Source: Escherichia phage teqhad. From it: 64,000 nucleotides of DNA. The translations under genes were made by a program, and so were the position numbers. Under the pieces are notes generated by a model, which did no database searches, was not told the DNA's origin, and saw nothing but the letters and a program-made list of their open reading frames with translations. Below, piece by piece: positions 14,881 to 63,839 of this stretch; the first letter of the stretch is position 1; each line of letters opens with the position of its first letter. The DNA lies in sequence record NC_054933.1. One strand, written 5' to 3'.

Positions 14881-14895
14881 TCTTTGACGATTTAA

Positions 14896-14911
14896 GGGAC
14901 CTTCGGGTCCC
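14896..14911 (+). terminator. Intrinsic terminator after gene 23 (GGGACC-UUCG-GGUCCC)
   Basis: Perfect 6-bp GC stem with UUCG tetraloop followed by T-rich run. Confidence 0.65.
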
Positions 14912-14928
14912 TTTAGTTGTTTTTATGG

Positions 14929-14936
14929 TATAAATA
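14929..14936 (+). promoter_or_regulatory. Late promoter TATAAATA upstream of gene 24
   Basis: Exact TATAAATA 28 nt upstream of the gene 24 ATG; AAGGAAAG ribosome-binding site. Confidence 0.6.
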
Positions 14937-14963
14937 AATCATATAAACCAAAAGGAAAGCGCA

Positions 14964-17771: not shown

Positions 17772-17840
17772 GTTATCGAGTTGGTGCCATTATATACATC
17801 ATTTTCTGAGTGTGTTTTGTGTGCTTTCAAAATGAAGAAA

Positions 17841-17854
17841 GGGGCCGAAGCCCC
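17841..17854 (-). terminator. Hairpin terminator after hoc (minus strand)
   Basis: ggggc-cgaa-gcccc; on the minus-strand RNA it is followed by a U-rich tract. Confidence 0.5.
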
Positions 17855-17860
17855 TTATGA

Positions 17861-19681: not shown

Positions 19682-19694
19682 AATATTTCCTCAG

Positions 19695-19702
19695 TATAAA
19701 TA
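19695..19702 (+). promoter_or_regulatory. Late promoter TATAAATA upstream of uvsW
   Basis: Exact TATAAATA 30 nt upstream of the uvsW ATG. Confidence 0.5.
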
Positions 19703-19731
19703 TAGATATATTTATTACATGGTATTTAGAC

Positions 19732-21243
19732 ATGACTGACATTAAAGTACATTTTTATGATTTTAGTCACGTGAGAATTGATTGTGAAGAAAGTACATTT
19801 CATGAACTCCGTGATTTCTTTAGCTTTGAAGCTGATGGGTATCGTTTTAATCCGAAATACAAATATGGCCACTGGGATGGACGAATCCGTCTTTTAGATT
19901 ATAATCGTCTTCTTCCATTCGGCTTAGTCGGGCAAATTAAAAAGTTCTGTGATAACTTTGGCTATAAAGCCTGGATTGACCCACAAATTAACGAAAAAGA
20001 AGAATTATCAAGAAAAGATTTTGATGAATGGCTTTCTAAATTAGAAATCTATTCAGGAAATAAAAGAATTGAACCACACTGGTATCAAAAAGATGCAGTG
20101 TTCGAAGGATTAGTTAATCGTCGTAGAATTCTTAATCTTCCAACATCCGCTGGTAAATCGTTAATTCAAGCTTTGCTTGCGCGATATTATTTGGAAAATT
20201 ATGAAGGTAAAATTCTTATCATTGTTCCAACAACTGCTCTGACAACTCAGATGGCTGATGACTTTGTTGATTATCGTTTATTCAGTCATGCAATGATAAA
20301 GAAAATTGGTGGAGGAGCATCAAAAGATGATAAATATAAAAATGATGCACCAGTCGTTGTTGGTACATGGCAAACTGTAGTAAAACAACCGAAAGAATGG
20401 TTCTCACAGTTTGGAATGATGATGAATGATGAATGCCATCTTGCTACAGGAAAAAGTATTTCATCTATCATATCAGGTTTAAATAACTGCATGTTCAAAT
20501 TCGGTTTGTCTGGTTCATTACGTGACGGCAAAGCTAATATCATGCAGTATGTTGGAATGTTCGGTGAAATATTTAAGCCAGTAACGACTTCTAAATTAAT
20601 GGAAGATGGACAAGTAACTGAGCTAAAAATTAATAGTATTTTTCTTCGCTATCCAGATGAGTTCACTACTAAATTAAAGGGAAAAACTTACCAAGAAGAA
20701 ATAAAAATTATTACTGGGCTCAGTAAAAGAAATAAATGGATCGCTAAATTAGCTATTAAGCTTGCGCAAAAAGATGAAAACGCTTTTGTCATGTTTAAAC
20801 ATGTATCGCATGGTAAAGCTATTTTCGATTTAATTAAAAATGAATACGATAAAGTTTATTACGTATCAGGGGAAGTTGATACCGAAACCCGCAATATAAT
20901 GAAAACCTTAGCTGAAAATGGTAAAGGAATAATTATAGTAGCTAGTTATGGTGTATTTTCTACTGGTATTTCAGTTAAAAATCTGCATCACGTTGTTTTA
21001 GCGCACGGTGTTAAATCAAAAATCATTGTATTACAAACAATCGGTCGTGTATTACGTAAGCATGGTTCTAAAACAATCGCAACCGTCTGGGACCTCATAG
21101 ATGATTGTGGTGTTAAGCCAAAATCTGCTAATACGAAAAAGAAATATGTTCATTTGAACTATCTTTTAAAACACGGCATTGATCGTATTCAGCGCTACGC
21201 AGATGAAAAATTTAATTACGTAATGAAAACAGTTAATTTATAA
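19732..21243 (+). CDS. uvsW: UvsW DNA/RNA helicase (SF2)
   Basis: 503 aa; Walker A (PTSAGKS) and DECH box (NDECHLATG). Confidence 0.95.
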   Translation: MTDIKVHFYDFSHVRIDCEESTFHELRDFFSFEADGYRFNPKYKYGHWDGRIRLLDYNRLLPFGLVGQIKKFCDNFGYKAWIDPQINEKEELSRKDFDEWLSKLEIYSGNKRIEPHWYQKDAVFEGLVNRRRILNLPTSAGKSLIQALLARYYLENYEGKILIIVPTTALTTQMADDFVDYRLFSHAMIKKIGGGASKDDKYKNDAPVVVGTWQTVVKQPKEWFSQFGMMMNDECHLATGKSISSIISGLNNCMFKFGLSGSLRDGKANIMQYVGMFGEIFKPVTTSKLMEDGQVTELKINSIFLRYPDEFTTKLKGKTYQEEIKIITGLSKRNKWIAKLAIKLAQKDENAFVMFKHVSHGKAIFDLIKNEYDKVYYVSGEVDTETRNIMKTLAENGKGIIIVASYGVFSTGISVKNLHHVVLAHGVKSKIIVLQTIGRVLRKHGSKTIATVWDLIDDCGVKPKSANTKKKYVHLNYLLKHGIDRIQRYADEKFNYVMKTVNL

Positions 21244-21256
21244 GGGCTTCGGCCCT

Positions 21257-21499
21257 TTGGAGAAAAAGATGTTACTAGAATTTAAACAATTTCTTTATGA
21301 AGCTTCTATTGATGAATTTATGGGTAAAATTGCCTCTTGTCAAACATTAGAAGGTTTAGAAGAACTTGAAGCTTATTATAAGAAAAGAGTCAAAGAAACT
21401 GAATTAAAAGATACTGATGACATCTCTGTGAGAGATGCTTTGGCAGGAAAAAGAGCTGAATTAGAAGATTCAGATGATGAAGTAGAAGAAAGCTTTTAA
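21257..21499 (+). CDS. uvsW.1: UvsW.1 small acidic protein
   Basis: 80 aa ORF directly downstream of uvsW. Confidence 0.7.
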   Translation: MEKKMLLEFKQFLYEASIDEFMGKIASCQTLEGLEELEAYYKKRVKETELKDTDDISVRDALAGKRAELEDSDDEVEESF

Positions 21500-30095: not shown

Positions 30096-30149
30096 TCCTC
30101 ATGTTATGCCAGTAAGACTACTATAACACAACACGAGGGACTTGTAAAC
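30096..30149 (-). repeat. 54-bp promoter/hairpin element, copy 1 (51/54 identical to 45910..45963)
   Basis: Minus strand reads GTTTAC-N18-TATAGT; outer inverted repeat cctcatgtt/aacacgagg; 3' arm contains the ribosome-binding site of the downstream ORF. Confidence 0.6.
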
Positions 30150-32206
30150 TACATTTTGAACTTTTTAGACATTCCGTTGATGTTAACCAAAGAAGCCAAG
30201 ATTTGAGAAACTTCGTTTTCCTCTTCTTTTGATTCTTCTACAAGGAATTGATTAAATCCAGCCATTGGACGAACTTCACCAGTTTCCATTAGATGGTCGC
30301 CATCATATACCGATTCCTCTAATTGTTCAGAAGGAGGAACGATTGTACCTTCTATTAGATACTTGTTATAAGCAGTTTCTTTCATAAAGTACGTGCTCAC
30401 TTTATTAATCTTCAGTAAAATTCCACGCGGTAGAATAACTTCAGCTTCTGATGGAAATCCTGATAAATGACCTGGAACGATAACTTTGATTCGCTCAGCT
30501 CCTTTAATTACCATACCCACGCTAGTTTCAGCATCTTCATTAGCATATGTAGAATGACTACCCATATGCATCAAATCTTCTGCATCAACGGAACCTTCTC
30601 CTTCGCCAGAAAATACTGCGCCGGAATCATCTAGAGCCATATAGTTTTTACCGTGCTCACCGAAAATATTTGGTTTAAGCGATGTGGATACGAAGTTCTT
30701 GAAATAGAACATTTTGTTTTCAATATTATGACGCAAAGTTTTAAAGGTAACTTCTTGTCCACGGTAAAGTGTAGTTCCTGGAGGAAGAACTGAACCTTTA
30801 GCGAATGCAGAATCAAGCGTCTCGATGTGTTTAATAGCTCGTTCCATATATTCTTCACGGGTAGAATCTGGTTTACCCAAAAGGAACGAGTTCATTTCAA
30901 CATATGAATCTGCACAATAATCTTCAATTACGTCAGATTCAGCCTGAGTTAATCCTTTTGGAGTTACTTCAGTACTTGCATATTCATATGCCTGAGCGGC
31001 AGATTCATTAATCAATTTATAAATGCCATTCATGACAAATTGAATAATAGCTGTCTTTTCATCTGGCGTAGCTTTAGAACCTTTAGCTAAATCATTGACA
31101 ATTTTCTTAATAACATCAAAACTATTAGAAATATTAATATCAGCAAGATCGCTTAAAATTTTATCAGTTTTATAATCAAAGAATTCTTTATTCTTTAAAT
31201 ATTCTTGAGAACCTTGATATGTTATATCGCTCTGCAGCTTGATAGATGGATCGCGTAAACGTGCATGGGCCAATGCAATATGATTTCGGAAGTTTTCTAG
31301 TTCATAATCGTTAGATTTAAAACGAGAAGCACTTCTCATACCACCGATAGCTCCTTTGCTAAAGTTTGAACCAATCTGAATAACGCCAGAGTTCATCGGA
31401 CCTTCTGCTTTATATACCGGAACTTTAGATTCAAACTCTTGATATTTCTTAGCAGCGAAGCTATCACCCTGAAGTGAAGCATCAACAGTAGAATATTGAG
31501 CTTGTGCTGCTAATCGACGACTAATTTTAGTTTTCTGAATAACAGCTTGATCCGTGCGCTTATCATTTTCTAAAGCAATAGAAGCAGCAACAGCGACAGC
31601 TTTAGGAACAGCATTACCTGTTTTAACGTCTACATAAACATCACCAACCTTTGATTCAACTTTTGTGAATAACTCAGTTGAAATAGGAGGTACACCTGGA
31701 ATGTCTTCTAAATTGGCATTTTTACGGTAAACCATAATATATGCATATTTCTTATCATAGTCCCAGATTTCCTTTAAAAGAACATATCGACCTGCTCCTT
31801 TAGTACGTACTAAACGGTCAGCAATAACTTGCATTTGACGAGCTGCGCCATTTGTTTTACTTTTTAGTACGCGGAATAGGCATGCGTCGATTTTATACTG
31901 TTTCATTGTTTGAAGAGCAGTATCAAAAACAGCATTAATGACGCCAATTGGATTTCCACCCAAGTTTCTAAGCTTGACTAACGATAATTTCTCGTTGACA
32001 CCTATCATTACGATATGCATCATTTTGTCGCCTGGCTTAACGTTTTTATTTGTATCACCGCCAGAGGTGTATGTACAAAATCTAAATCCAGGAAGAACGC
32101 TTTCTTCACCGGCTTGAATAGCAAAAATTTGTGGTATTTTATGCTTAGGATTTAAGTTAACAACCGGCGCCGAAGCGCCGTCAAATAATTCTGTAATAAG
32201 TTCCAT
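30149..32206 (-). CDS. Alt-family NAD-protein ADP-ribosyltransferase paralog
   Basis: 685 aa; N-terminus MELITELFD shared with the neighbouring paralog; R/STS/ExE motifs present (LYRGQ, FVSTSLKP, SEAEVILPRG). Confidence 0.85.
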   Translation of the reverse strand: MELITELFDGASAPVVNLNPKHKIPQIFAIQAGEESVLPGFRFCTYTSGGDTNKNVKPGDKMMHIVMIGVNEKLSLVKLRNLGGNPIGVINAVFDTALQTMKQYKIDACLFRVLKSKTNGAARQMQVIADRLVRTKGAGRYVLLKEIWDYDKKYAYIMVYRKNANLEDIPGVPPISTELFTKVESKVGDVYVDVKTGNAVPKAVAVAASIALENDKRTDQAVIQKTKISRRLAAQAQYSTVDASLQGDSFAAKKYQEFESKVPVYKAEGPMNSGVIQIGSNFSKGAIGGMRSASRFKSNDYELENFRNHIALAHARLRDPSIKLQSDITYQGSQEYLKNKEFFDYKTDKILSDLADINISNSFDVIKKIVNDLAKGSKATPDEKTAIIQFVMNGIYKLINESAAQAYEYASTEVTPKGLTQAESDVIEDYCADSYVEMNSFLLGKPDSTREEYMERAIKHIETLDSAFAKGSVLPPGTTLYRGQEVTFKTLRHNIENKMFYFKNFVSTSLKPNIFGEHGKNYMALDDSGAVFSGEGEGSVDAEDLMHMGSHSTYANEDAETSVGMVIKGAERIKVIVPGHLSGFPSEAEVILPRGILLKINKVSTYFMKETAYNKYLIEGTIVPPSEQLEESVYDGDHLMETGEVRPMAGFNQFLVEESKEEENEVSQILASLVNINGMSKKFKM

Positions 32207-32209
32207 GAT

Positions 32210-34303
32210 TTATCCTTGAACGAACTTGTAAGGCATGTTTGTAATATCTATGCAAGACGCAATAATTCCAAGAGATGATTCTACTTTCTGTTTAACGTTT
32301 GATGAAACAAATGATGCAAAGTCAACTCTGTCTTCTATTTCAATATCACCTGTCATTGCAACCAATTCACCAGTTTCCATTAAATGGTCTCCATCATAGA
32401 TTACCGATTCGGTGAGCTCTTCCGTGGTCATAACTTCAGCTTGAATGAGTTTTGTATTATTAGATGTTGTTCCGTCATTATTAGAAGCATCAGTTATTTT
32501 ATTAACTTTGACCATCAATCCACGCGGTAGAATAACTTCAGCTTCTGTTGCTATTCCGAGACTTCCTGGATATACAACATTAACTTTATGAGCTCCATCA
32601 ATTGCCCATCCTATTTGAACTTTAACGTATTCAGGATTTTCTTTATACGCTCTTATTTCGTTTGGATTAATAGTTATTCCTTCTTCATTTTTATCAACTG
32701 TTAATTCATTGCGAGCTTCTGGTTCTAAAAGACCAATACCAGCATGTGTAATTCCAAAACGTCCAAAAATGATAGGAGTTAAAGAAGTAGATACAAAATT
32801 TCTGAAGTAGAACACTTTATTTTTAACTAGTGCTTCGTATATAGGAGCAGTCATACTTTGAGCACGATAAACTGTAATGCCTTCTGGTATACGGTCACCA
32901 TTTTCAAAAGCTGAATCTAAGTTATTTATAGCAGATTCAATTTCTTTTTCACTCATTACATCATATCGTTCTGGATTGTAACGACCTAAAAGAAGATTAT
33001 TAATGTCAGTATATCCTGAACCACAATATTCTCTAATACCTCTCTTTTGTGATGGAGTATATTTAGAACCATCACGAGCGATTGTAATATCAATCATAGG
33101 ACCAGCTCCTACGCCAGAGAAACTGTATATCATTCGTTTGAGGAATTTAGTTTTTGCTGCGTTCCAGGAATTTTTAGTTATTTCTTCCCAGACTTCATCT
33201 GGTTGTCCTTTACGATTTTTATTATGATTAGCAAGCCATTTATCTTTATAATCTTCAAAGAATTGATTTACAGCTGCTGCGTATTTCTCTAAACATTTTA
33301 TTGAAGTAGTTGGTTCATTTTTAATTGCATTAAAAATTACTTCTTTAATTTTTTCTGAAACTTCACCGACTTGACTCATTGGAAAGAATTTATAATCATA
33401 GTGAAGTTCATCTGCCGTTCCTTCAGCAATAATTTTTGCTGCCTTTGTTTTAGAAGCTAATGAATTAATTCCAATTTTCATTTCTTCTGCTTCGGGAATT
33501 AAAGGTGCAGTAGCTGGTTTATTAAAATTAGCTGCTGTAGATTCATACTTCTGGAATAATTCACTTTCAAATCTAGAAGATTCCAATGACTGGCTTTGTG
33601 CAATTGCTCTACGGGAAATTTTAACTTTAACGATTACAGCTTGGTCAGAACGTTTATCATTTTCTTGTGCAATAGATGCTGCAATTGCCTCATTTTTGGT
33701 TACTTGGGCTCCAGTATCTTTATTGATATAAACATCACCGACTTTCGATTCAACTTTAGTAAAGAGCTCGGTACTAATTTCCGGAACTCCTGGAATGTCT
33801 TCTAGTGATACATTTTTACGATGTATAAGAATATATGCATACTTTTTATCGTAATCCCAGAGTTCCTTAAGAAGGACGTATCTGCCACCTGAACGACTAC
33901 GGATAAGTCTATCAGCAATAACTTGAATTTGTCGAGCTTGACCAGCGGTTTTAGACTTAAGAATACGAAGCATACAAGCATCAATTTTATATTGACGCAT
34001 TGTTTGCATTGCAACAGTAAAAACTGAATTGATATAATTAATTGGGCTTGGACCAAGACCTTTTAATTTAGCAATTGAACCTTTAGCAGTTAATGTAAAA
34101 GGAACGATATGCATCATTTTATCGCCCATTTTTAAATCGCGATTAGTATCACCTCCAGATGTATACGTGCATAAACGAAAGCCTGGTTGTTCAATTGCAT
34201 CATCAACATGAACTGAAAAAATTTGTGGTATTTTCTTCTTTGGATTTAAGTTTGTAATCGGAAGAGTAGTATCTTCGTCAAATAATTCTGTAATGAGTTC
34301 CAT
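32210..34303 (-). CDS. alt: Alt ADP-ribosyltransferase (probable canonical alt; head-packaged)
   Basis: 697 aa from the second ATG (GAGG at 5 nt; track ORF starts at 34306); motifs VYRAQ, FVSTSLTP, TEAEVILPRG; own late promoter upstream. Confidence 0.8.
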   Translation of the reverse strand: MELITELFDEDTTLPITNLNPKKKIPQIFSVHVDDAIEQPGFRLCTYTSGGDTNRDLKMGDKMMHIVPFTLTAKGSIAKLKGLGPSPINYINSVFTVAMQTMRQYKIDACMLRILKSKTAGQARQIQVIADRLIRSRSGGRYVLLKELWDYDKKYAYILIHRKNVSLEDIPGVPEISTELFTKVESKVGDVYINKDTGAQVTKNEAIAASIAQENDKRSDQAVIVKVKISRRAIAQSQSLESSRFESELFQKYESTAANFNKPATAPLIPEAEEMKIGINSLASKTKAAKIIAEGTADELHYDYKFFPMSQVGEVSEKIKEVIFNAIKNEPTTSIKCLEKYAAAVNQFFEDYKDKWLANHNKNRKGQPDEVWEEITKNSWNAAKTKFLKRMIYSFSGVGAGPMIDITIARDGSKYTPSQKRGIREYCGSGYTDINNLLLGRYNPERYDVMSEKEIESAINNLDSAFENGDRIPEGITVYRAQSMTAPIYEALVKNKVFYFRNFVSTSLTPIIFGRFGITHAGIGLLEPEARNELTVDKNEEGITINPNEIRAYKENPEYVKVQIGWAIDGAHKVNVVYPGSLGIATEAEVILPRGLMVKVNKITDASNNDGTTSNNTKLIQAEVMTTEELTESVIYDGDHLMETGELVAMTGDIEIEDRVDFASFVSSNVKQKVESSLGIIASCIDITNMPYKFVQG

Positions 34304-34326
34304 CATATCCTCTCTAGTGTTTATTC

Positions 34327-41843: not shown

Positions 41844-42076
41844 AGTACGCCATACACCCTTTGTGCTTCAACTAATCCATCAAAATCCAATTTAAGATGT
41901 GTTATTTGATCACCATCACCTGGATTCACAATTACTAATACTGAACGAGGAGTTTCGGTAATAACACGAACCGATGTTTCAGGAAATCGTTCAGAAACCT
42001 TATTTACCAATTCCTGTGCAAATAGCTTAACTTTTTCTTGGAATTCTTTAACAGTAATCGGTTTTTCACTTAGCAT
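41840..42076 (-). CDS. Hypothetical protein (cd.2-like)
   Basis: 78 aa ORF. Confidence 0.6.
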   Translation of the reverse strand: MLSEKPITVKEFQEKVKLFAQELVNKVSERFPETSVRVITETPRSVLVIVNPGDGDQITHLKLDFDGLVEAQRVYGVL

Positions 42077-42612
42077 GTTGATCCCAGCTCCTTACTTTCA
42101 ACGTTTTTAACTAATTTGACAGAAACTAATTCAGCATCTTGAGTAATCATTACCGGGCCTTCTTCATACTCTTCAAGATATTCTAGAGCTTTCTTTTTAG
42201 CTTCTTCCTTCGTATCAGTTTGAGCATAGATATAAAACATACAACCAGTAATACCTACTACTTTCCATTTAATTTCTTTATCAGTTTTAATTTCAAATTT
42301 ACTGACAGAATCATCTTTTTGAACTTCTTCGAAAAAATAATATTCTGACATATAAGTAATTGAAAATAATGGGCTATCTTTATAGCATTCACCCATTACA
42401 TCAACAGCTTTATACCAGTAATCGTCAATTTCACGTTTAATGCTAATAACATTTTTCGCGGGATCAATTTTTACTTTAAATGAATTTTCCCCAATAAACT
42501 GAGCAATTCGTTTATTAGCCCCGCAAGTTTCATTAAAAATATCTTTATATCCAGCTTTAAAGCGATAAACCTTATCTTCTTCAAACCATTCGCTCATTTT
42601 CAATTTCCTCAT
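42070..42612 (-). CDS. Hypothetical protein (cd.3-like)
   Basis: 180 aa ORF; early-promoter-like GTTTAC upstream. Confidence 0.65.
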   Translation of the reverse strand: MRKLKMSEWFEEDKVYRFKAGYKDIFNETCGANKRIAQFIGENSFKVKIDPAKNVISIKREIDDYWYKAVDVMGECYKDSPLFSITYMSEYYFFEEVQKDDSVSKFEIKTDKEIKWKVVGITGCMFYIYAQTDTKEEAKKKALEYLEEYEEGPVMITQDAELVSVKLVKNVESKELGSTC

Positions 42613-43328: not shown

Positions 43329-44531
<1,203 letters not shown>

Positions 44532-44535
<4 letters not shown>

Positions 44536-44762
44536 TTATTTTTCTCAACCAATGATTGAATATAATCATGCAGGTCTTTAGATGCTTTACCCCACTTATT
44601 TTGGTATTCATTTTTAAGATTAGCACGTGATTGAGCTAATAAAACATCATTAGTTGGAGGTAAAGATTCTAATCGTTGAATCTGACGTCCATAAATCATT
44701 GCTGCCATCTCTGATTCATAAATCAATCCTTTGAGATGTTCAAATTGATGCCATGAAATCAT
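44532..44762 (-). CDS. Hypothetical protein
   Basis: 76 aa ORF. Confidence 0.55.
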
Positions 44763-45058
44763 TTACATTTATCCTCTTTTAACTCTTGACGATAATAACA
44801 TATCATAGTTTTCTGGTCATGTACATATCGTTTTACATCATTAAGCCAAATACGAAATTCCTGAGAATCTTCAAATGGCATACCGACCCAAGCTTTACCA
44901 TCGATAACTTTAACTTGCCAAGATAGTTTAGCTTCGTCATATGACTTTATTTGCACAGGCCAATTAGGATGAACTGTTTCTTTCTTTACTTCTAGAGGCT
45001 TTGTCGAACAACCAACTAGAAGACCAATAGATAATATTACTGCTGATAGTTTAATCAT
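44759..45058 (-). CDS. Outer-membrane spanin (o-spanin, Rz1-like lipoprotein)
   Basis: 99 aa; signal peptide with lipobox LLVGC|S; several Cys; directly downstream of a TM/coiled-coil ORF. Confidence 0.7.
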   Translation of the reverse strand: MIKLSAVILSIGLLVGCSTKPLEVKKETVHPNWPVQIKSYDEAKLSWQVKVIDGKAWVGMPFEDSQEFRIWLNDVKRYVHDQKTMICYYRQELKEDKCK

Positions 45059-45408
45059 TTAGAAAGGTCCTGGATGTCTTCTGCGAACTTGTTGAAGGAG
45101 TTGTTGATTTGTTTTTCAACCAATCCTGGCTTATGAGCCACCACATCCGCCTTCTTTGCGTCTTTGCGCAGCTTTTCATTTTCACGCTCAATTGCAGCAA
45201 TTGATTCACGATTTTTATTATTCATTGCATCAATATAATTATATTGATTTTTTAAATCATTTAATGCTAAGGCGTTTTCATTGGCCGTTTTTGTAATTTC
45301 TACAACAGACGTTTCTAATCTTTCAATTTTATTTTTTAAAATTAAAGAAGTTCCGCCCAATGCAATTACAATTAATAACAAGCCTGCTGTCGTATTACTT
45401 AATTGCAT
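45055..45408 (-). CDS. Inner-membrane spanin (i-spanin, Rz-like)
   Basis: 117 aa; N-terminal TM helix (LLLIVIALGGTSLIL) followed by coiled-coil-rich periplasmic domain. Confidence 0.7.
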   Translation of the reverse strand: MQLSNTTAGLLLIVIALGGTSLILKNKIERLETSVVEITKTANENALALNDLKNQYNYIDAMNNKNRESIAAIERENEKLRKDAKKADVVAHKPGLVEKQINNSFNKFAEDIQDLSK

Positions 45409-45905
45409 AAAGTTTTAATAACCTCTATAATATCGTCTTGAGAAAGACCGTTAATTAAAATATGATGTTCCGCCGGAGATTTAGAAATTTTAAAGCATGC
45501 CGCAACATCTTCTGCCATATCTGATGCGCTACGATTTGGATTACTAATTCCAAGACGATGTTTTCCCGTTAAAGGATTAACGATAATATAGCATTTACAG
45601 CTATTGATATGAACATTAGGTTGAGTCTGATTAATGAACACTTCACAATCATACTTAGCGAGTTGATTTTCTAAAAAGACTTTCATCTCCTCAACCGCAT
45701 CAGGAAGCATATCACGGGCTTGCTCAAGACGACGATTTCGATATTCTTTAATGGTCGTTTTCCGCTTGACTTGCTTAGCTAAATCTTTCTTAAGATCGGT
45801 GATATATCCAACTCGACGATTTCCTTTGAATACAGAAATCCCATCTGTAGTATCACCGTATGCTTCAACGACCATTTCAGTAGTAATAAGCTGTAAATCC
45901 ATCAT
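45399..45905 (-). CDS. alc: Alc (transcription termination on cytosine-containing DNA)
   Basis: 168 aa ORF at the T4 alc position upstream of the spanin pair; ribosome-binding site embedded in the repeat element. Confidence 0.75.
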   Translation of the reverse strand: MMDLQLITTEMVVEAYGDTTDGISVFKGNRRVGYITDLKKDLAKQVKRKTTIKEYRNRRLEQARDMLPDAVEEMKVFLENQLAKYDCEVFINQTQPNVHINSCKCYIIVNPLTGKHRLGISNPNRSASDMAEDVAACFKISKSPAEHHILINGLSQDDIIEVIKTLCN

Positions 45906-45909
45906 AAAG

Positions 45910-45963
45910 TCCTCATGTTATGTCAGTAAGACTACTGTAACACAACATGAGGGACTTGTAAAC
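45910..45963 (-). repeat. 54-bp promoter/hairpin element, copy 2
   Basis: Minus strand GTTTAC-N18-TACAGT; perfect outer stem cctcatgtt/aacatgagg and inner stem cagta/tactg; GAGGA ribosome-binding site of alc in the 3' arm. Confidence 0.6.
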
Positions 45964-45966
45964 AGC

Positions 45967-47554
<1,588 letters not shown>

Positions 47555-47562
47555 AATAAAAT

Positions 47563-47576
47563 GGGCCTTGCGGCCC
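47563..47576 (-). promoter_or_regulatory. Intercistronic GC hairpin between nrdB and denA
   Basis: gggcc-ttgc-ggccc sits 8 nt upstream of the denA ATG on the minus strand; possible attenuator/processing structure. Confidence 0.4.
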
Positions 47577-47581
47577 ACTCC

Positions 47582-48760
47582 TTAAAAATATTTTTTAAAA
47601 CTCATCATAACTTTATCATCAACATCATTATCAATCTGTGCAACAAGATAAGATGACAGTTCTACTTCTTGTGGCGCGGATTGAACATTATCAGAATTAA
47701 GATATTCACGAATCCAAGGATATGGATGTTTAACCGGAGCATCGGTAATTGGGCATGGAAGACCACACTGTTTCATACGAGATACAGTTAAGTAATCAAT
47801 AAAGCTCCACATGCTATTTGTATTTAATCCAGGAACATCGCCATCTTTAAATAAATGAACTGCCCAATCTTTTTCTTGGCGGTTAACTTCCATGAAAATA
47901 TCAACTGCTTCTTGTTCACACTCTTGAGCAATTTTAACCCATTCATCGCCATCAGTACCAGATTGAAGTTGACGAATAATATATTGTGTACCTTTAAGAT
48001 GAAGCTGCTCATCACGTGCAATGAACTTCATAATCTTTGCATTGCCTTCCATAATTTCCATGTTCTTATGGAAGTTAAAGGTACATGCGAAAGATACATA
48101 AAAACGAATAGCTTCCAATGCGTTGATTACATGCAAACAGAGGTAAAGAGATTTCATTAGCTCACGCTTCCAATATGTCTCATGCTCAATAGCATCTTCA
48201 ATAACATCTTCGTCTGCATTAATTTCTTTTTGGTATTCGATATCAGCTTTAGCGTTTTCCCAATAACGAGTTTTAGTCAGAACATCATCATAATAACGTC
48301 CAATGGATTCAGCACGTTTCATAATAGCTTCATCTAATACAATCTCATCAAATACCTTCGATGGATCAGTATAAAGATTTCGCATGATATGTGTATATGA
48401 ACGAGAGTGAATAGTTTCACTAAAAGTCCACGTAGCAACCCATGTATCAAGGCTTGGGTCTGAAATTAATGACATAAGTACAGCAGACGGCGCACGACCC
48501 TGAATGCTATCCAAAAGTGATTGATACTTCAGATTATTAGTAAAAATATTTTGCTGATACTGAGGAAGCTTATTAAACTGTGCAGCATCCATCATTAAGT
48601 TTACTTCTTCAGGACGCCAGAAAAATGATAATTGCTTTTCGGTTAAATCTTCAAAAACTTTATGGCGTTGAATATCATAACGCGCAATACCAAGACCTGA
48701 ACCAAAAAACATAGGTTCTTTTAAAACATCAACTGGATTTGTATTAAAAACTGTGCTCAT
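47582..48760 (-). CDS. nrdB: Ribonucleotide reductase small subunit (aerobic), uninterrupted
   Basis: 392 aa continuous ORF, MSTVFNTNPVDVLKEPMFF...; no intron-sized interruption. Confidence 0.95.
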   Translation of the reverse strand: MSTVFNTNPVDVLKEPMFFGSGLGIARYDIQRHKVFEDLTEKQLSFFWRPEEVNLMMDAAQFNKLPQYQQNIFTNNLKYQSLLDSIQGRAPSAVLMSLISDPSLDTWVATWTFSETIHSRSYTHIMRNLYTDPSKVFDEIVLDEAIMKRAESIGRYYDDVLTKTRYWENAKADIEYQKEINADEDVIEDAIEHETYWKRELMKSLYLCLHVINALEAIRFYVSFACTFNFHKNMEIMEGNAKIMKFIARDEQLHLKGTQYIIRQLQSGTDGDEWVKIAQECEQEAVDIFMEVNRQEKDWAVHLFKDGDVPGLNTNSMWSFIDYLTVSRMKQCGLPCPITDAPVKHPYPWIREYLNSDNVQSAPQEVELSSYLVAQIDNDVDDKVMMSFKKYF

Positions 48761-48811
48761 AAATTTTCCGCTTAGTTAATAGTTGGTGACTCGTCCGTGA
48801 GTCAAATTATA

Positions 48812-51076
48812 TCATAATTTACAGGATGAACAATCTTCAGCTTTTGGAGTTTCTATTTCATAATCATCAGTACCAGAACCATCACGGGTATTATGATAAT
48901 AGAAATTTTTTCCGCCAAAATACCAAAAATACAAAAGGTCATCAATCATTATTGACATTGGAACCTTTCCTTTTGGAAAAATCTGTGGGTCATAATATGT
49001 ATTCGCTGAAGCTGATTGACATACCCATTTCAGCATAATAGCTACCTGCGTAAGATAAGGTTTATTACCTTTCTTAGCTAATTTCCATGTATAATCATAG
49101 AGGTCTATGTTATGCTCAATATTGGGCACGACTTGATTAAAGGAGCCCTCTTTTGATTCTTTAACAGAGACTGGTCCACGTGGAGGCTCGATACCGTTTG
49201 TACTGTTAGAAACTTGGGAAGATGACTCACATGGCATAAGTGCTGATAATGTGCTATTACGGATGCCAAAGAGCTTAAGGTCTTCCCGCAGCGACGACCA
49301 GTCACAAACGTATTTTGGAGCTGCGATTTGGTCAATCTTTTTATTGTACCAGTCGATAGGTAATTCGCCTCGAGACCAACGAGTGTCTGAATAATATTCA
49401 CAAGGTCCTTTTTCTTTGGCGAGCTTAATGGATGCTTTAATGAGTCCATACTGTAATCTCTCAAATAGTTCATGTGTTAAATCGTTAGCATCTTCATAAG
49501 AAGCAAAGTTACTTGCCAGCCAAGCTGCATAGTTAGTAACACCTACACCAAGGTTTCGACGCTTTTTAGCTTTTTCTGCTTCAGGAACTGGATATCCTTG
49601 GTAATCCAAAAGATTATCAAGAGCACGAACTTGAACTTCTGCTAATTCATTAATTTTATCTTGGTCTTGCCAATCGAAGTTATCCAGCACAAATGCAGAT
49701 AACGTGCACAATCCAATTTCAGCATCAGGGCTATTCACATCATTTGTTGGAATAGCAATTTCACAGCACAAGTTACTCTGACGAATAGGTGCCTTTTCAC
49801 GAATAAACGGAGTATAGTTATTCGTATTATCAATGAACTGCACATAAATCCTTGCTGTTCCTGAGCGTTCAGTCATGAGCAATTCAAATAGTTCACGGGC
49901 TTTAATGCGCTTTTTACGAATATTAGGGTCTTTTTCTGCTGCTTCGTATAATTCACGGAAACGGTCTTGGTCTTTAAAATAAGAATAATAAAGCTCTCCA
50001 CCCATTTCATGTGGACTGAACAAAGTAATGTAATCGTTCTTTCCAAAACGTTCCATCATTAGATCATTCAGTTGAACACCATAATCCATATGACGAATGC
50101 GGTTTTCTTCTACACCTTTGTTATTTTTCAAAACGAGAAGATTTTCAACTTCCAAATGCCAAATAGGATAATAAGCAGTAGCAGCGCCGCCACGAATTCC
50201 ACCCTGTGAGCATGATTTAACAGCAGTCTGAAAATGTTTCCAAAAAGGAATAACACCGGTATGGCGTACTTCACCCATGCCAATCTTAGAACCTTCAGCA
50301 CGAATCATACCAACGTTAATACCAATTCCAGCGCGTTTAGAGATATATTCAACAATTGAAGCGGAAGCCTTATTGATAGACTTTAATGAATCACCTGCCT
50401 CAATAACAACACATGAACTAAACTGTCGAGTCGGAGTACGGCAACCAGCCATAATAGGAGTTGGCAATGAAATCTGTCGAGTAGATACTGCTTCATAAAA
50501 ACGGATAACGTGTTTTAATCTATCAACAGGTTCATCTTGATGCAATGCCATTCCAATAGTCATAAATGCAAACTGTGGAGTTTCATAAATTTGACCAGTG
50601 GTTTTATCTTTAACTAGATATTTTTCTTTTAATTGCATCGCCCCGGAATAAGTAAATTCCATATCCCGCTCGTGCTTAATTTTTGATTCTAAAAATGTAA
50701 TTTCTTCTGCTGAATATTTTGACAATAATTCAGGGTCGTATTTACCTTCATTTACACAGTAAGAAATATGGTCAATAAATGAACGTGGTTCATACTGCCC
50801 ATAAACATGCTTACGAAGAGCGAACATTAGACAACGTGCAGCTACATATTGATAATCAGGCTCTTCAACCGAAATAGAATTCGCAGCGGCCTTAATGACA
50901 ATAGTCTGAATATCATCAGTTGTCATTCCATCACGGAGATAAGATTTAATATTTTCATATAATTCATAAGGATCTACCGATGTTCCTTCAGCTGCCCAAG
51001 ATAAAACTTTAATAATTTTTTGTGGGTCAAAGCTCTGAGAAACACCACTACTTTTGATAACATTAATTAATTGCAT
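48812..51076 (-). CDS. nrdA: Ribonucleotide reductase large subunit (aerobic)
   Basis: 754 aa; catalytic Cys-containing motifs; only 51 bp separates it from nrdB. Confidence 0.97.
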   Translation of the reverse strand: MQLINVIKSSGVSQSFDPQKIIKVLSWAAEGTSVDPYELYENIKSYLRDGMTTDDIQTIVIKAAANSISVEEPDYQYVAARCLMFALRKHVYGQYEPRSFIDHISYCVNEGKYDPELLSKYSAEEITFLESKIKHERDMEFTYSGAMQLKEKYLVKDKTTGQIYETPQFAFMTIGMALHQDEPVDRLKHVIRFYEAVSTRQISLPTPIMAGCRTPTRQFSSCVVIEAGDSLKSINKASASIVEYISKRAGIGINVGMIRAEGSKIGMGEVRHTGVIPFWKHFQTAVKSCSQGGIRGGAATAYYPIWHLEVENLLVLKNNKGVEENRIRHMDYGVQLNDLMMERFGKNDYITLFSPHEMGGELYYSYFKDQDRFRELYEAAEKDPNIRKKRIKARELFELLMTERSGTARIYVQFIDNTNNYTPFIREKAPIRQSNLCCEIAIPTNDVNSPDAEIGLCTLSAFVLDNFDWQDQDKINELAEVQVRALDNLLDYQGYPVPEAEKAKKRRNLGVGVTNYAAWLASNFASYEDANDLTHELFERLQYGLIKASIKLAKEKGPCEYYSDTRWSRGELPIDWYNKKIDQIAAPKYVCDWSSLREDLKLFGIRNSTLSALMPCESSSQVSNSTNGIEPPRGPVSVKESKEGSFNQVVPNIEHNIDLYDYTWKLAKKGNKPYLTQVAIMLKWVCQSASANTYYDPQIFPKGKVPMSIMIDDLLYFWYFGGKNFYYHNTRDGSGTDDYEIETPKAEDCSSCKL

Positions 51077-51393
51077 AAGTCCTCAACTTGAAAATCGTCT
51101 TTAAACAATCGGTTAACTATATGAGCTATTATATCACCATGACACGGCTTTGGTTTACATGTGCATCCTAGCCTCATTCCACGTAAAGGCTCTAAATGTG
51201 CTTTAGTTATTTCTCCGGATTTAATTCGACGTATAAAATCTTTTTTGAATAATTCAATGGCAGCCTCCCGGCTGCCAGCATCTTTACCGACGTAATTTCC
51301 CCAAAATGTACCGCGGTGAATATTAACATCAAAGTCGGATTTGTATTTATTCACTACCCGGCATAGACGGCCCGGTTGGTAATAATTCTTCAT
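51067..51393 (-). CDS. Hypothetical protein (nrdA.1 position)
   Basis: 108 aa ORF; Cys/His-containing C-terminus ([12 protein letters not shown]). Confidence 0.65.
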
Positions 51394-51622
51394 ATTGTTT
51401 TTCCGTTAAAACAGTAATATCGTAGTAACAGTCAGAAGAAGTTTTAACTGTGGAAATTTTATTGTCAAAATACTCACGAGTCATTTTATGAGTATAGTAT
51501 TTTTTACCATAAATGGTAATAGGCTGTTCTGGTCCTGGAACTTCTAACTCGCTTGGATTAGGAAGTGTAAAAAGAACGACACCAGAAGTATCTTTAAATC
51601 GTAAAATCATATATCCTCTCAA
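51347..51622 (-). CDS. Hypothetical protein (nrdA.2 position)
   Basis: 91 aa ORF; overlaps the downstream ORF by 47 nt in a different frame. Confidence 0.6.
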
Positions 51623-51633
51623 TTAAATTAAAA

Positions 51634-52494
51634 TTATACCGCCATTTTTCCTTTAATTGGCAGATGAGATACATAGTTGTTAAGAACAAAATTATGAGGC
51701 TTTGCAAATTGACTCAACCAAAATACCTGCGATTCTGTGTCCCATTCATCAAATTCATCTGGAAATTTTAATTGTAATTCGCATAAATCCATAGGTTCAC
51801 GACGCAAAATTTCTTTACATTGTTCTACGTGATTCATATAGATATGAGTATTACCACCAGAAAATATCAAATCTCCCGGAATAAGATTACACATCTTAGC
51901 TACAATATGAACTAACGTAGCATATGATGCAATATTAAATGGAAGACCGAGGAAAACATCTACCGAACGTTGATACCACTGCAAATCTAAATAGCCATTA
52001 CGCACATTAAACTGATAGAACATATGACAAGGAGGTAATGCCATATATTTAAGTTCAGCTGGATTCCACGCAGAAACGATTTGACGTCGATCAGTTGGTA
52101 ATTTTTTAATACGATCAATAGTTTCAACTAATTGATCCACACCACCGAAATCACGCCATTGTTTACCATATATAGGACCAAGTTCACCACTATGATATCC
52201 TAGGTCTTTAGCCTGGTTTTCATAGTTATCGTCCCAAACTGTTTTGCCTTGGATTAACGAATCGTGTTGAATTAATCGTAAATCATTAACATTTGTGCTT
52301 CCTGATAAAAACCATATTAGCTCAGCAATGCATGCATTCCAGGCGAGCTTCTTAGTTGTTACTGCAGGAAAACCTTTGGTTAAATCCCAACGCAATTTAG
52401 TACCGAACAGAGCAATTGTTCCTGTGCCCGTTCGGTCATCGGTTTCATAGCCATTTTCAAAAATGTCTTTAATTAAATCTTGGTATTGTTTCAT
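51634..52494 (-). CDS. td: Thymidylate synthase, uninterrupted (no group I intron)
   Basis: 286 aa continuous ORF starting MKQYQDLIKDIFENGYETDDRTGTGT...; active-site region ...LPPCH... present. Confidence 0.97.
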   Translation of the reverse strand: MKQYQDLIKDIFENGYETDDRTGTGTIALFGTKLRWDLTKGFPAVTTKKLAWNACIAELIWFLSGSTNVNDLRLIQHDSLIQGKTVWDDNYENQAKDLGYHSGELGPIYGKQWRDFGGVDQLVETIDRIKKLPTDRRQIVSAWNPAELKYMALPPCHMFYQFNVRNGYLDLQWYQRSVDVFLGLPFNIASYATLVHIVAKMCNLIPGDLIFSGGNTHIYMNHVEQCKEILRREPMDLCELQLKFPDEFDEWDTESQVFWLSQFAKPHNFVLNNYVSHLPIKGKMAV

Positions 52495-52539
52495 TTAGTA
52501 CCTTATATAAATTATAATACATTTTATGAAGCTAAATAA

Positions 52540-52887
52540 TCAATACGGTTTAGCATCAAATTTTCTCTCAATTTCAGGTGTGAAATATAATTCTTTACCG
52601 CGTTTGGAAAAGCGACCAATAATATGATAATTATTCTCATCAAACGTAATATTACCAATATCCATAGCTTTCAACCAAATATCGATATTTCTATCCAGCT
52701 TTATGTCAAAATTCCAATACGGAGAACTATTACCGAAAATACTGCAAGCGGATTCAGTGAAACAGCTACTATAAATCTTGTCTTTAGGAACTACTAATTG
52801 ATAGACACCTTTAATAAACTGAGGACCCTGCCATTTAGGTTGTTTCACGTCTTTTTCTAATAGAATAGGGTAATAATTAAAATTCAT
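52540..52887 (-). CDS. Orphan ORF inserted between frd and td
   Basis: 115 aa from the ATG at 52887 (track ORF starts at an upstream GTG, 52899); no recognisable motif; sits in a ~0.4 kb segment splitting the normally overlapping frd/td pair. Confidence 0.55.
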   Translation of the reverse strand: MNFNYYPILLEKDVKQPKWQGPQFIKGVYQLVVPKDKIYSSCFTESACSIFGNSSPYWNFDIKLDRNIDIWLKAMDIGNITFDENNYHIIGRFSKRGKELYFTPEIERKFDAKPY

Positions 52888-52907
52888 ATTTTCCGCCACG
52901 CGTTATT

Positions 52908-53734
<827 letters not shown>

Positions 53735-53744
53735 ATTATTTTCC

Positions 53745-53987
53745 TTAAACAGACTTTTTCACAATTTTCCAATCAGCTTTAAACTGCTCGACGTCAGAAT
53801 GGTAAATCCAAAATCCTGCGCTTTCTCCGTCTTCATAAAGAGGGCATCCATCACATTCATCTTCCCATCCCATGTCACGTAAAAGATGTTCAGCTTTTTC
53901 AACAAGTTCAGAATCTTTACCGATGATATTAAAATACCATTTACCTCTAACTTCCGAATCTTTGATGCTCTGACGTTGTAATCTCAT
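53745..53987 (-). CDS. Hypothetical protein (frd.2 position)
   Basis: 80 aa ORF. Confidence 0.6.
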   Translation of the reverse strand: MRLQRQSIKDSEVRGKWYFNIIGKDSELVEKAEHLLRDMGWEDECDGCPLYEDGESAGFWIYHSDVEQFKADWKIVKKSV

Positions 53988-54045
53988 TTTATTCTCCTCA
54001 GTAGTTGATAGGGTAATAGTATCACACTACTACCCTTTCTGTAAA

Positions 54046-54426
54046 CTACTTTTTGAAAGTTTTTCGCAAAAGTTTAATGATTTCGTCTACATTGTTTTCG
54101 TCAACAATACAGTGAATTTTTGTTACGCCATAAACCTTGTCTTTGACTTCATCTTCTTCAGAAATTGGTTCTTTATACTCACGAAAACAATGAAATTCAT
54201 CTTCGCAAATTTCTAAAAGTCTATCTTTGAGGTAAAAATGCTTTCCATTTGCGCATTCAATGTGTTTTACTGCTTTATATCCATTAGCGACGGAAACTTC
54301 TTTAACTTCAAACCATCCGCCATTATCTCGAATAGCTTTAACTATTGATGAATTAGAACGTGGGCTGTAATTAATAAATGTATCAATAAGTCTTGGAACA
54401 AGTTCATACTTTTTACCAGTATACAT
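54046..54426 (-). CDS. Hypothetical protein (frd.3 position)
   Basis: 126 aa ORF. Confidence 0.65.
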   Translation of the reverse strand: MYTGKKYELVPRLIDTFINYSPRSNSSIVKAIRDNGGWFEVKEVSVANGYKAVKHIECANGKHFYLKDRLLEICEDEFHCFREYKEPISEEDEVKDKVYGVTKIHCIVDENNVDEIIKLLRKTFKK

Positions 54427-54470
54427 TACGTTTTCCTCATTTTGATAGGGGCTTGATAGCCCCTTGATAA

Positions 54471-54719
54471 TTATTGTTCAATCAGTCCCATGTAAAATTC
54501 TGCGTCTTCAGAATCCATGCCATCGCAATATTCATTAGCCATAAAGCGGGTGAGGTCTTCAAGAGGACCTTCAATAACGATTTGAATACTCCAAAACTTA
54601 GAATCTTGCACGCTTGTAATACTAAGTTCAGGATAACGATTACGAATAATTTCTTCAATATATTCAAAATCAACGATGTCAATATCAACTTTAGCCATAT
54701 TGTTTTCCTCTTTAATCAT
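54471..54719 (-). CDS. Hypothetical acidic protein upstream of the frd cluster
   Basis: 82 aa ORF; AAGAGGAAAA ribosome-binding site; early-promoter-like GTTTACA-N17-TACTAT upstream on the minus strand. Confidence 0.55.
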
Positions 54720-54802
54720 CAGCAGTATTGCCGATAGTTGTATAGTACCACAGTCCTTGTGGTATGTAAACCGTTTTGTGAAAAAATTTTTAAAATAAAA
54801 AA

Positions 54803-54821
54803 GGGGACCCTAGAGGTCCCC
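54803..54821 (-). terminator. Strong intrinsic terminator after gene 32 (minus strand)
   Basis: ggggacc-ctaga-ggtcccc; minus-strand RNA continues with a long U-run. Confidence 0.65.
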
Positions 54822-54843
54822 AATTAATTAGTAATATAATCTA

Positions 54844-55752
54844 TTAAAGGTCATTCAAAAGGTCATCCAGGTCCGTGTCATCAGCACTAGATGAACTGCC
54901 AGAGCTTGAGCTCATAAAATCATCTTCAGTTTTTGTATTGAAGTCATCAACATTGAATGCATCCAAATCATCAGCAACTTTATCAGCTTTCTTAGCAGCA
55001 GTTGCAGCGGCACCGCCCATCACAGCAGTTCCCATAACTTGACCAAATTTAGTGCTCAGTTCTTCAAACGATTTGAATTTATCTTTAGAAGTCATTTCAG
55101 AAAGGTCAACCATTTGTTCGAACAGTTCTTTCTGGAAAGATTCATCGTCAATGTTTGGAATCGCAGATTGATTCAGGAATTTAGATTCGTCGTAGTTACT
55201 AAATCCAGAAACCTGTTTAACTTTCAGTACAAAGTTAGCACCTTCCCACGGACAAGTTACATCAACCGGAGTTTCACCCATTTCAACATCAACCGCAATC
55301 ATCGCGTTGATTTTATCCCAGATTTTCTTACCGAAACGATATTTAAATACTTTACCTTCGTTTTCTGGAGCAGCTGGGTCTTTTACAACAAGAATGTTAG
55401 CCCAGTAAGAAGTTTTACGTTTAACAAGACTGTACTCTTTGTTGTCAGTGTTGTACAGATCATTTTTACTGATGTATTGACATACTGGGCAAGAATCGTA
55501 ATCACCGTGGGTAGATGAACAGTTTTCAATATACCATTTACCATTTTTCTTGAAACCGTGATTTACAAGAATTGCGAATGGTGCTTGTTCATCATTTTTA
55601 GACGGAAGAAAACGAATTACTGCTTGACCGTTACCCGCATTGTCGAGTTTCAGTTTCCACTCGCCTTTATCTTCAGAAGAAAAACCACCTTTATTTCCAG
55701 CCAGTTTAGCCATTTGTGCAGCGAGTTCAGCAGTAGATTTACGTTTAAACAT
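54844..55752 (-). CDS. 32: Single-stranded DNA-binding protein gp32
   Basis: 302 aa; [17 protein letters not shown]...; zinc-binding Cys/His; acidic Ser-rich C-terminus; T4 gp32. Confidence 0.98.
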
Positions 55753-55835
55753 TTTTATTTCCTTTTTAATTTAATTAACAGTTGGTGCTATGACGATGTA
55801 TGACCTCATAGCTGGTCAGTGAGATAATTATAATC
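55753..55835 (-). promoter_or_regulatory. Gene 32 autoregulatory translational operator (A/U-rich leader plus pseudoknot region)
   Basis: Minus-strand leader ...ACUGACCAGCUAUGAGGUCAUACAUCGUCAUAGCACC...UUAAUUAAAUUAAAAAGGAAAUAAAAAUG has the architecture of the T4 gene 32 operator (recalled, not aligned). Confidence 0.55.
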
Positions 55836-55843
55836 TATTTATA
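55836..55843 (-). promoter_or_regulatory. Late promoter (TATAAATA on minus strand) upstream of gene 32
   Basis: Plus-strand TATTTATA in the 32-59 intergenic region. Confidence 0.45.
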
Positions 55844-55851
55844 ATAAGCAA

Positions 55852-56505
55852 TTAATACTTACAAGATTTCACAGTTTCAATGAAAACATTTTTAGCTTTC
55901 TGTGAATCAATATTTAAAATTTTTCTATAAGCCTTTAACTTTATAGAATAATTATTCCAGACTAAATTATCAGTCTGTTCATCATGTTTATCAATTATAT
56001 TTAAAAATGAATCAAGCAAGATAAACGTCTCAAACGAAATTATGTTCGATTGCAGAAGTTTAAAAATATAACTTGACTGAACTTTTGGATTATACTCAAA
56101 GATTTCTTTAAAAGCAGAAACTTCAACTTTTTTACTAAAATAATAAATGTTGCGAATATCTTCTTCAAACTTAAATTTAATTTGCTTTAAGCGTCCGATA
56201 TATTCACGATAAAACACAAGTGCATCAGCGTCAGAGATGTCACCAATCCAAGCATCTTGGTTAGCAACAAGATTGCTTATAAAGATTAAAGCAAGTTCCT
56301 TTAATTTATATTTTTCTGATAACTTCTGGAAAAAATACTTATCCCTTCGCTTTTGATAAGCGGCATCAGACACCCGCATGCACCAATTATACTTAATAAC
56401 ATCATACTTTCCATTCATATGCTGTTTTATCATTAAGTATAATTTATAAACTGATTTACCATCAATGTATCTTTCACCACCAGCAGGCATGCGGAGTTTA
56501 ATCAT
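55852..56505 (-). CDS. 59: Helicase loader gp59
   Basis: 217 aa, MIKLRMPAGGERYIDGKSVYKLYLMIK...; T4 gp59. Confidence 0.95.
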   Translation of the reverse strand: MIKLRMPAGGERYIDGKSVYKLYLMIKQHMNGKYDVIKYNWCMRVSDAAYQKRRDKYFFQKLSEKYKLKELALIFISNLVANQDAWIGDISDADALVFYREYIGRLKQIKFKFEEDIRNIYYFSKKVEVSAFKEIFEYNPKVQSSYIFKLLQSNIISFETFILLDSFLNIIDKHDEQTDNLVWNNYSIKLKAYRKILNIDSQKAKNVFIETVKSCKY

Positions 56506-63176: not shown

Positions 63177-63839
63177 ATGGCTGATTTAAAAGTAGGTTCA
63201 ACAACTGGAGGCTCTGTCATTTGGCATCAAGGAAATTTTCCATTGAATCCGGCCGGTGACGATGTACTCTATAAATCATTTAAAATATATTCAGAATATA
63301 ACAAACCACAAGCTACAGATAACGATTTCGTTTCTAAAGCTAATGGTGGTACTTACGCCGCGACTGTTCGATTTAATGGAGGCGTGCATGTTCCTACTAT
63401 AGGTAGTAGTCAACAGTGCGGTGTTTATCCAGGTAACGGTGATGCAGCTACTTTTGCTATGGCAAATATTGATATTGTTTCGTGGAATGGTATTGGTTTT
63501 AAATCATCACAAGGTTCAGCAGACCGAACTGTTGTAATTAATGCACGTAATGGTGATATTAGTACAAAAGGCGTTGTGACAGCAGTAGGTCAAATAAGAA
63601 GTAATGCAGTTGCTCCTGTAGCAGCGAATGACCTTACTAGAAAGGACTATGTTGATGGAGCAATAAATACTGTTACGGCAAATGCAAACTCTAGGGTGCT
63701 ACGGTCTGGTGACACCATGACAGGTAATTTAACAGCGCCAAACTTTTTCTCGCAGAATCCTGCATCTCAACCTTCACACGTTCCACGATTTGACCAAATC
63801 GTAATTAAGGATTCTGTTCAAGATTTCGGCTATTATTAA
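63177..63839 (+). CDS. 36: Long tail fiber distal connector gp36
   Basis: 220 aa; T4 gp36 size and position. Confidence 0.9.

Follow-up and report, generated by a model that had tools for sequence, protein, structure and literature searches.

Bacteriophage T4 is an outlier among its relatives, carrying 15 homing endonucleases where most related phages have few (PMC2988022), and T2 has been named by Barth et al. as a T4-like phage poor in homing endonuclease genes (HEGs) (PMC10448857). Marker exclusion between T2 and T4 has been attributed to these homing endonucleases (PMC2988022), and intron homing, intronless homing, MobE trans-homing and T2/T4 marker exclusion are all already established on T2, which shares the architecture described here. 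A 64,000-nt stretch of Escherichia phage teqhad (NC_054933.1; hereafter the window) was compared with the records of T4 (NC_000866), T2 (MH751506), T6 (MH550421) and Escherichia phage FriedrichZschokke (MZ501067) at the positions where T4 carries group I introns in td and nrdB and endonuclease genes of the seg and mob types. The window is almost certainly a Tequatrovirus segment with T2-type empty-site alleles at six T4 mobile-element positions, and its loci would be expected to act as recipients in crosses with T4.

T4 mobile-element positions in the window

Aligned by blastn to T4 NC_000866 (85000-162000), the whole window was colinear with T4 from 91629 (gene 12) to 156687 (gene 36/37), with the same backbone gene order in both phages. 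Six clean T4-only segments, totalling ~4.4 kb, interrupt this alignment and are annotated in the T4 record as segD, segE, the nrdB intron with I-TevIII, nrdB.1 with mobE, the td intron with I-TevI, and segG (Table 1). A first-pass annotation, made from the letters of the window alone, had held that the T4 group I introns and their I-TevI and I-TevIII genes are absent, and alignment to T4, T2 and T6 upheld this along with every other structural claim that it made. From gene 12 through gene 36, the window presents empty-site alleles at all six T4 mobile-DNA positions of the interval.

Searches with the elements themselves gave the same picture, with no tblastn match below E = 0.3 for SegD, SegE, I-TevIII, MobE, NrdB.1, I-TevI or SegG in the six frames of the whole window, and blastn-short matches of 13-24 nt only for the DNA of the six elements (13-21 nt for the td and nrdB intron DNA). 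An Rfam gathering-threshold scan of the whole window likewise recovered zero group I introns, but so did a 20-kb control (T4 130000-150000), in which T4's own td and nrdB introns were missed. Because these introns escaped the same scan, the negative Rfam result carries no weight and is therefore unusable for excluding ORF-bearing phage introns (ORF, open reading frame), and direct alignment was used instead.

Both td, encoding thymidylate synthase, and nrdB, encoding the beta subunit of class Ia ribonucleotide reductase (RNR), are continuous ORFs of mature protein length that read straight across the T4 exon joins, as the first-pass annotation had read them. The td ORF matches Pfam Thymidylat_synt (PF00303) over the entire profile (1-266/266, E 7.6e-92) and the nrdB ORF matches Ribonuc_red_sm (PF00268) over profile positions 9-271/281 (E 4e-37), and a chance origin was dismissed for both because ORFs of 286 and 392 codons have full-length family matches. 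The two are ordinary uninterrupted genes that would be translated without splicing. The empty td-intron site lies between window positions 51946 and 51945, where ...TTTTCCTCGGT is followed directly by CTTCCATTTAAT...; in T4, exon 1 ends in ...TTTTCTTGGGT and is followed by the intron and then by exon 2, which begins CTACCGTTTAAT.... The empty nrdB-intron site falls at about window 48085-48086, and the window reads ...TCTTTCGCATGTACCTTTAAC... across the T4 exon join. NrdB is 392 aa long in both the window and T2 and 388 aa in spliced T4, a difference accounted for by a 12-nt indel in the 5' part of the gene (window 48087-48760). The description as intron-free is limited to td and nrdB, nrdD lying outside the window.

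The remaining elements are those of the gene 23-24, inh-uvsW and 59-32 junctions, which the first-pass annotation had judged too short for seg-type endonuclease genes, and of the nrdA-nrdB spacer, which it had described as being without mobE. At 83, 50, 99 and 51 bp, respectively, they are indeed so, the first three being too small for a seg gene of 600-700 bp and T4 carrying insertions of ~600-790 bp at the same places, including the 700-bp nrdB.1 and mobE segment in the spacer, and the four window junctions contain neither a GIY-YIG or HNH ORF nor a homologue of SegD, SegE, SegG or MobE. They contain only short sequences with regulatory-looking motifs. The gene 23-24 junction comprises a GGGACCTTCGGGTCCC hairpin followed by a T-run, a TATAAATA box resembling a late promoter and a Shine-Dalgarno sequence, and the inh-uvsW junction carries a TATAAATA box as well; T4 matches the latter junction up to ...TTATTAC, after which segE follows directly. 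The 59-32 junction includes sequence homologous to the translational-operator region of T4 gene 32, whose pseudoknot overlaps segG in its 5' part (PMC535899). By the known T4 consensus, the hairpin and T-run, the TATAAATA boxes and the gene 32 operator homologue would all have regulatory roles.

The arrangement of T2 is the same in these respects. Its td (861 nt) and nrdB (1179 nt) are both continuous, as in the window, and its gaps have exactly the window lengths (51 bp between nrdA and nrdB, 83 bp between genes 23 and 24, 50 bp between inh and uvsW, and 99 bp between genes 59 and 32). In sequence, the 23-24 and inh-uvsW junctions match those of T2 at every base, the 59-32 junction has one mismatch and the nrdA-nrdB spacer has four in its 51 bp. 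The order nrdB, nrdA, td, td-frd ORF, frd, 32, 59 is found also in FriedrichZschokke (Tequatrovirus teqhad, BASEL collection), which differs from the window in having one extra small ORF between frd.1 and frd.2.

Table 1. Coordinates of the T4 mobile-element positions, the genes and junctions that bear them, and the small ORFs of the window that T4 lacks. Empty positions were placed by blastn against T4 (NC_000866); the last column gives the phage records in which an element was counted.
Feature	Window position	Strand	In the window	In T4	Records
segD	14892-14951		60 bp	106522-107310, 789 bp	53
segE	19719-19737		19 bp	112045-112679, 635 bp	159
nrdB group I intron with defective I-TevIII	48085-48086		2 bp	138458-139057, 600 bp	118
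nrdB.1 and mobE	48761-48815		55 bp	139720-140419, 700 bp	20 (mobE region; any match, 143)
td group I intron with I-TevI	51945/51946		0 bp	143547-144563, 1017 bp	197
segG	55816-55850		35 bp	147919-148541, 623 bp	142
td, thymidylate synthase	51634..52494	-	continuous ORF, 286 aa; Pfam match		
nrdB, class Ia RNR beta subunit	47582..48760	-	continuous ORF, 392 aa; Pfam match		
nrdA, RNR alpha subunit	48812..51076	-	754 aa; colinear with T4 and T2		
nrdA-nrdB spacer	48761..48811	-	51 bp	nrdB.1 and mobE here	
Gene 23-24 junction	14881..14963	+	83 bp	segD here	
inh-uvsW junction	19682..19731	+	50 bp	segE here	
Gene 59-32 junction	55753..55851	-	99 bp	segG here	
RB32ORF214c-like ORF, between cd.2 and cd.3	42070..42612	-	180 aa; extra DNA relative to T4, 42076-42603		
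RB32ORF217c-like ORF, between pseT and pseT.1	44233..44535		100 aa; extra DNA relative to T4, 44234-44528		
RB32ORF229c-like ORF, between frd and td, directly upstream of td	52540..52887	-	115 aa; extra DNA, 52498-52902		
RB32ORF231c-like ORF, between frd and frd.1	53489..53734		81 aa; extra DNA relative to T4, 53509-53711		

A megablast search with window 44000-56000 matched 1023 phage records, almost all of them Tequatrovirus and related T4-like phages of Escherichia, Shigella and relatives, with FriedrichZschokke as the top match at 98.1% identity across the full 12 kb. Element frequencies were counted in 50,697 phage records at a query coverage of at least 80%; for comparison, the td 3' exon has matches in ~544 records, and coverage of the 12-kb region reaches at least 80% in 486. 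Each element is present in a minority of relatives, and every empty site is therefore the majority state. The phage thus joins the Tequatrovirus majority that is without the T4 introns and seg and mob genes in this interval, a placement of little significance beyond annotation, since a T2-type allele set poor in mobile elements, in an ordinary Tequatrovirus, is ordinary and already known.

Flanking sequences and relatedness

The sequences beside several of the empty sites are of the T2 type. The td insertion point is preceded by TTGGGT and followed by CTACC in the intron-bearing phages T4 and T6, and is preceded by GGT and followed by CTTCC in intron-less T2 and in the window; the differences between the window and T4 around this site are all synonymous. 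Over its first 680 aligned nt, nrdB is 83.8% identical to T4 and 91.9% identical to T2, and its 3' part is ~96.6% identical to both. Over the first 150 nt of uvsW (window 19732-19881), beside the segE site, identity is 100% to T2 and 74% to T4. Local divergence between T2 and T4 beside endonuclease insertion sites has already been plotted, according to the legend of Figure 1 in PMC2790892.

Two of these genes show further differences between records. In the window, uvsW (503 aa) occupies 19732-21243 (+), with uvsW.1 (80 aa) as a distinct ORF downstream of it at 21257-21499 (+), as annotated in T2; the T4 RefSeq entry annotates one uvsW of 1764 nt, with a note on sequence discrepancies there. 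Within td, nt 226-375 of the window diverge by ~15-20% from T4, T2 and T6 alike.

The first-pass annotation had called the phage a T2-like intron-less relative, a description that is correct for architecture, T2 having the junction lengths of the window and T6 carrying segD, segE, mobE and the td intron, but that does not extend to overall relatedness. Identity to T2 is ~94-97% (96.8% for window 1-37633 and 94.0% for window 43295-63814, which spans pseT to gene 36 and aligns to T2 as one colinear high-scoring segment pair), identity to T4 is 95.8% (60,272 aligned bases, blastn), and the 3' end of td is T6-type. Judged by these values, the window is no closer to T2 than to T4. The 3' cassette of td is dimorphic: over nt 676-825 (window 51670-51819), identity is 96-99% to T6 and 49-61% to T4 and T2, with ~35 residues altered in the C-terminal region of thymidylate synthase, and the form shared by the window and T6 occurs in ~159 records. 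On these alignments the genome is a mosaic, in which a T6-type td segment (nt 676-825) lies within a T2-type element architecture.

The gene content of the reference phages is similarly mixed. T2 has the same gene order as the window and shares with it RB32ORF217c, RB32ORF229c, RB32ORF231c and two full-length alt paralogues, but differs in the td 3' cassette and in being without the RB32ORF214c-like ORF and cd.4/cd.5. T6 shares the td 3' cassette with the window and has RB32ORF214c, RB32ORF217c, RB32ORF229c and RB32ORF231c, but differs in the presence of segD, segE, a full-length mobE and a td intron with I-TevI, and has further insertions in the 13-14, 18-19 and uvsW regions. Neither the four small ORFs nor a second alt of full length is found in T4.

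The mobE gene of T6 is a single reading frame of 642 nt (1589-2230 of the T6 piece compared), and the T4 reference has a mobE of 426 nt and an nrdB.1 of 252 nt in its place; in other T4 records, the alignment at nrdB.1 and mobE comprises 698 bases instead of 700. This suggests that the reference T4 entry may have a frameshift or sequence difference at nrdB.1/mobE.

Predicted marker exclusion in crosses with T4

The cleavage sites of free-standing endonucleases lie hundreds to thousands of bp away from the endonuclease genes themselves and coincide with those T2 markers that are subject to exclusion in crosses of T2 with T4 (PMC2988022). The intron-encoded I-TevI has a recognition sequence of ~38 bp in which many substitutions are tolerated, and prefers 5'-CXXXG-3' positioned 23/25 nt upstream of the insertion site (PMC2988022), and MobE-dependent nicks in T2 nrdB have been mapped to nt 122-126 (PMC2790892). 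In the window, the I-TevI cleavage motif CAACG lies 23 nt upstream of the td insertion site, which is the natural distance, and nt 121-128 of nrdB read GAAAAGCA, identical to T2, as against GAGCGGCA in T4.

In mixed infection with T4, the loci of the window would be expected to serve as recipients, with I-TevI cleaving td at 23/25 nt upstream of the empty intron site, MobE nicking nrdB around nt 122-126, and SegE and SegG cutting within uvsW and gene 32, respectively; repair from the T4 copy would then convert the cut loci, producing localized marker exclusion as in T2 x T4. That T4 would exclude window alleles in this way is a reasonable inference because of the CAACG distance, the T2-identical nrdB nt 122-126 and the T2-type uvsW nt 1-150. 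The first-pass annotation had proposed the junctions themselves as potential targets of exclusion, and its expectation of exclusion is a fair one in view of these T2-type target sequences, but the free-standing enzymes cut inside the neighbouring nrdB, gene 32 and uvsW; the junctions are therefore insertion points, and the targets are the adjacent coding sequences. The loci predicted to be converted to the T4 form are td, the 5' part of nrdB, the 5' end of uvsW and gene 32, a list that may be useful both for the design of crosses and for the choice of phylogenetic regions undisturbed by gene conversion.

Small ORFs absent from T4 and alternative explanations

The first-pass annotation had further described the region as homing-endonuclease-free, which is accurate for recognisable endonuclease families and less so as a blanket statement, since other junctions contain four small, polymorphic ORFs that T4 lacks (Table 1). 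In FriedrichZschokke, the counterparts of 42070..42612, 44233..44535 and 52540..52887 are labelled 'putative homing endonuclease'; the BASEL methods text ties this label to comparative genomics, that is, to presence or absence in alignments, and describes no domain evidence. A homology basis for these labels was sought and rejected, no nuclease domain being found in Pfam, NCBIfam or PHROGs. None of the four ORFs matches a nuclease, GIY-YIG and HNH included, in these three collections, their PHROG families are of unknown function, and a search of PDB sequences with 42070..42612 and 52540..52899 gave no nuclease match.

The 180-aa ORF between cd.2 and cd.3, which T6 also has and which T2 and T4 lack, belongs to PHROG 3710 (unknown function), has a weak PHROG match to goF (E 3e-4), and has only three close homologues among 5.8 billion proteins, with no informative domain. 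The td-frd ORF is present in 361 records, T2 and T6 included, and has 16 relatives in an exhaustive HMMER search. Over 18 sequences its invariant residues are Q16, W19, G27, G91, K95, G97 and F102, and this alignment reveals no conserved acidic or histidine set; the ORF has no recognisable nuclease fold. For its structure prediction with AlphaFold 2 (AF2), a poor model from a 4-sequence alignment (predicted local distance difference test score, pLDDT, 60.5) was replaced by one from the 18-sequence alignment. The td-frd ORF is a small beta-rich phage protein for which a nuclease role is without support, and its distribution looks like absence from the T4 lineage rather than mobile insertion. 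The idea that this ORF and the td intron are mutually exclusive, the ORF being removed by I-TevI co-conversion, was rejected, as T6 has both.

These ORFs bear directly on whether the window is free of endonucleases at all, as one of them could belong to a family of homing endonucleases not so far recognised. Their presence/absence polymorphism at fixed intergenic sites beside conserved nucleotide-metabolism genes is consistent with such a role, as is the label borne by three of them in the closest relative, FriedrichZschokke, and unrecognised families do exist in T-even-like phages (hef, PMC2988022; PMC10448857), Hef of phage U5 being the precedent (PMC2988022). We nevertheless consider a hidden endonuclease very unlikely, given that the profile and PDB searches gave no nuclease match, that the labels rest on presence or absence, that the invariants of the td-frd ORF (Q, W, G, G, K, G, F) lack an acidic or histidine set, and that this ORF occurs in as many as 361 records, T2 and T6 among them. 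The best candidates for a selfish element or new endonuclease family would be 42070..42612 and the 115-aa ORF upstream of td, each a long shot; if one of them were an endonuclease, the window phage would itself exclude T4 markers at cd or td/frd.

The empty sites could also have arisen by secondary loss, in which some of the elements, once present in the lineage, were removed either by precise deletion or through recombination with an empty allele. This would fit the cyclical model of gain, degeneration and loss for HEGs (PMC2988022), and the T6-type 3' cassette of td, in a window whose td is empty when that of T6 has the intron, points to recombination between intron-bearing and intron-less lineages within td. 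The T2 empty-allele type, and not the co-converted type of T4 and T6, is nevertheless what is seen next to the td site, in the 5' part of nrdB and at the 5' end of uvsW, and no remnant of any element was detected in the window by tblastn or blastn-short. Because these three flanks are T2-type, empty-type alleles are favoured over recent loss from a T4-like allele, and secondary loss is unlikely, with the reservation that an ancient loss followed by allele replacement is indistinguishable from a never-invaded state. Least probable of all, to the point of being negligible, is an artefact in which introns and endonuclease genes were collapsed out during assembly or sequencing; nothing was found in its favour, the same junctions recur in independent complete genomes (equal lengths in T2; 98% identity across 12 kb and the same gene order in FriedrichZschokke), hundreds of further records cover the region, and the td and nrdB reading frames are intact and full length. 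We infer that the alleles of the window are un-invaded, or at least not recently invaded. Against the reading of these loci as T2-type empty sites receptive to T4 enzymes stand the 7 differences from T4 within the 60 bp surrounding the td insertion site, the two substitutions, 3 and 6 nt downstream of the mapped MobE nicks, by which nrdB departs from T2, the size of the window, which at 64 kb leaves nrdD and the remaining nine T4 endonuclease loci outside it, and the four ORFs absent from T4, which place a total lack of homing endonucleases beyond proof.

Other differences from T4 lie away from the elements considered above. Local divergence from T4 peaks at window 17500-18900 (hoc), 54100-54500 (frd.2) and 63300-63600, where identity falls to 57-85% per 200-bp window, and these peaks are unassociated with T4 endonuclease genes. 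The two alt paralogues, encoding ADP-ribosyltransferases, are both full-length in the window (30149-32206, 685 aa; 32210-34306, 698 aa; both on the - strand), as in T2 and T6; the second copy in T4 consists of the alt.-1/alt.-2 remnants only, and the extra window DNA at this position spans 30169-33496.

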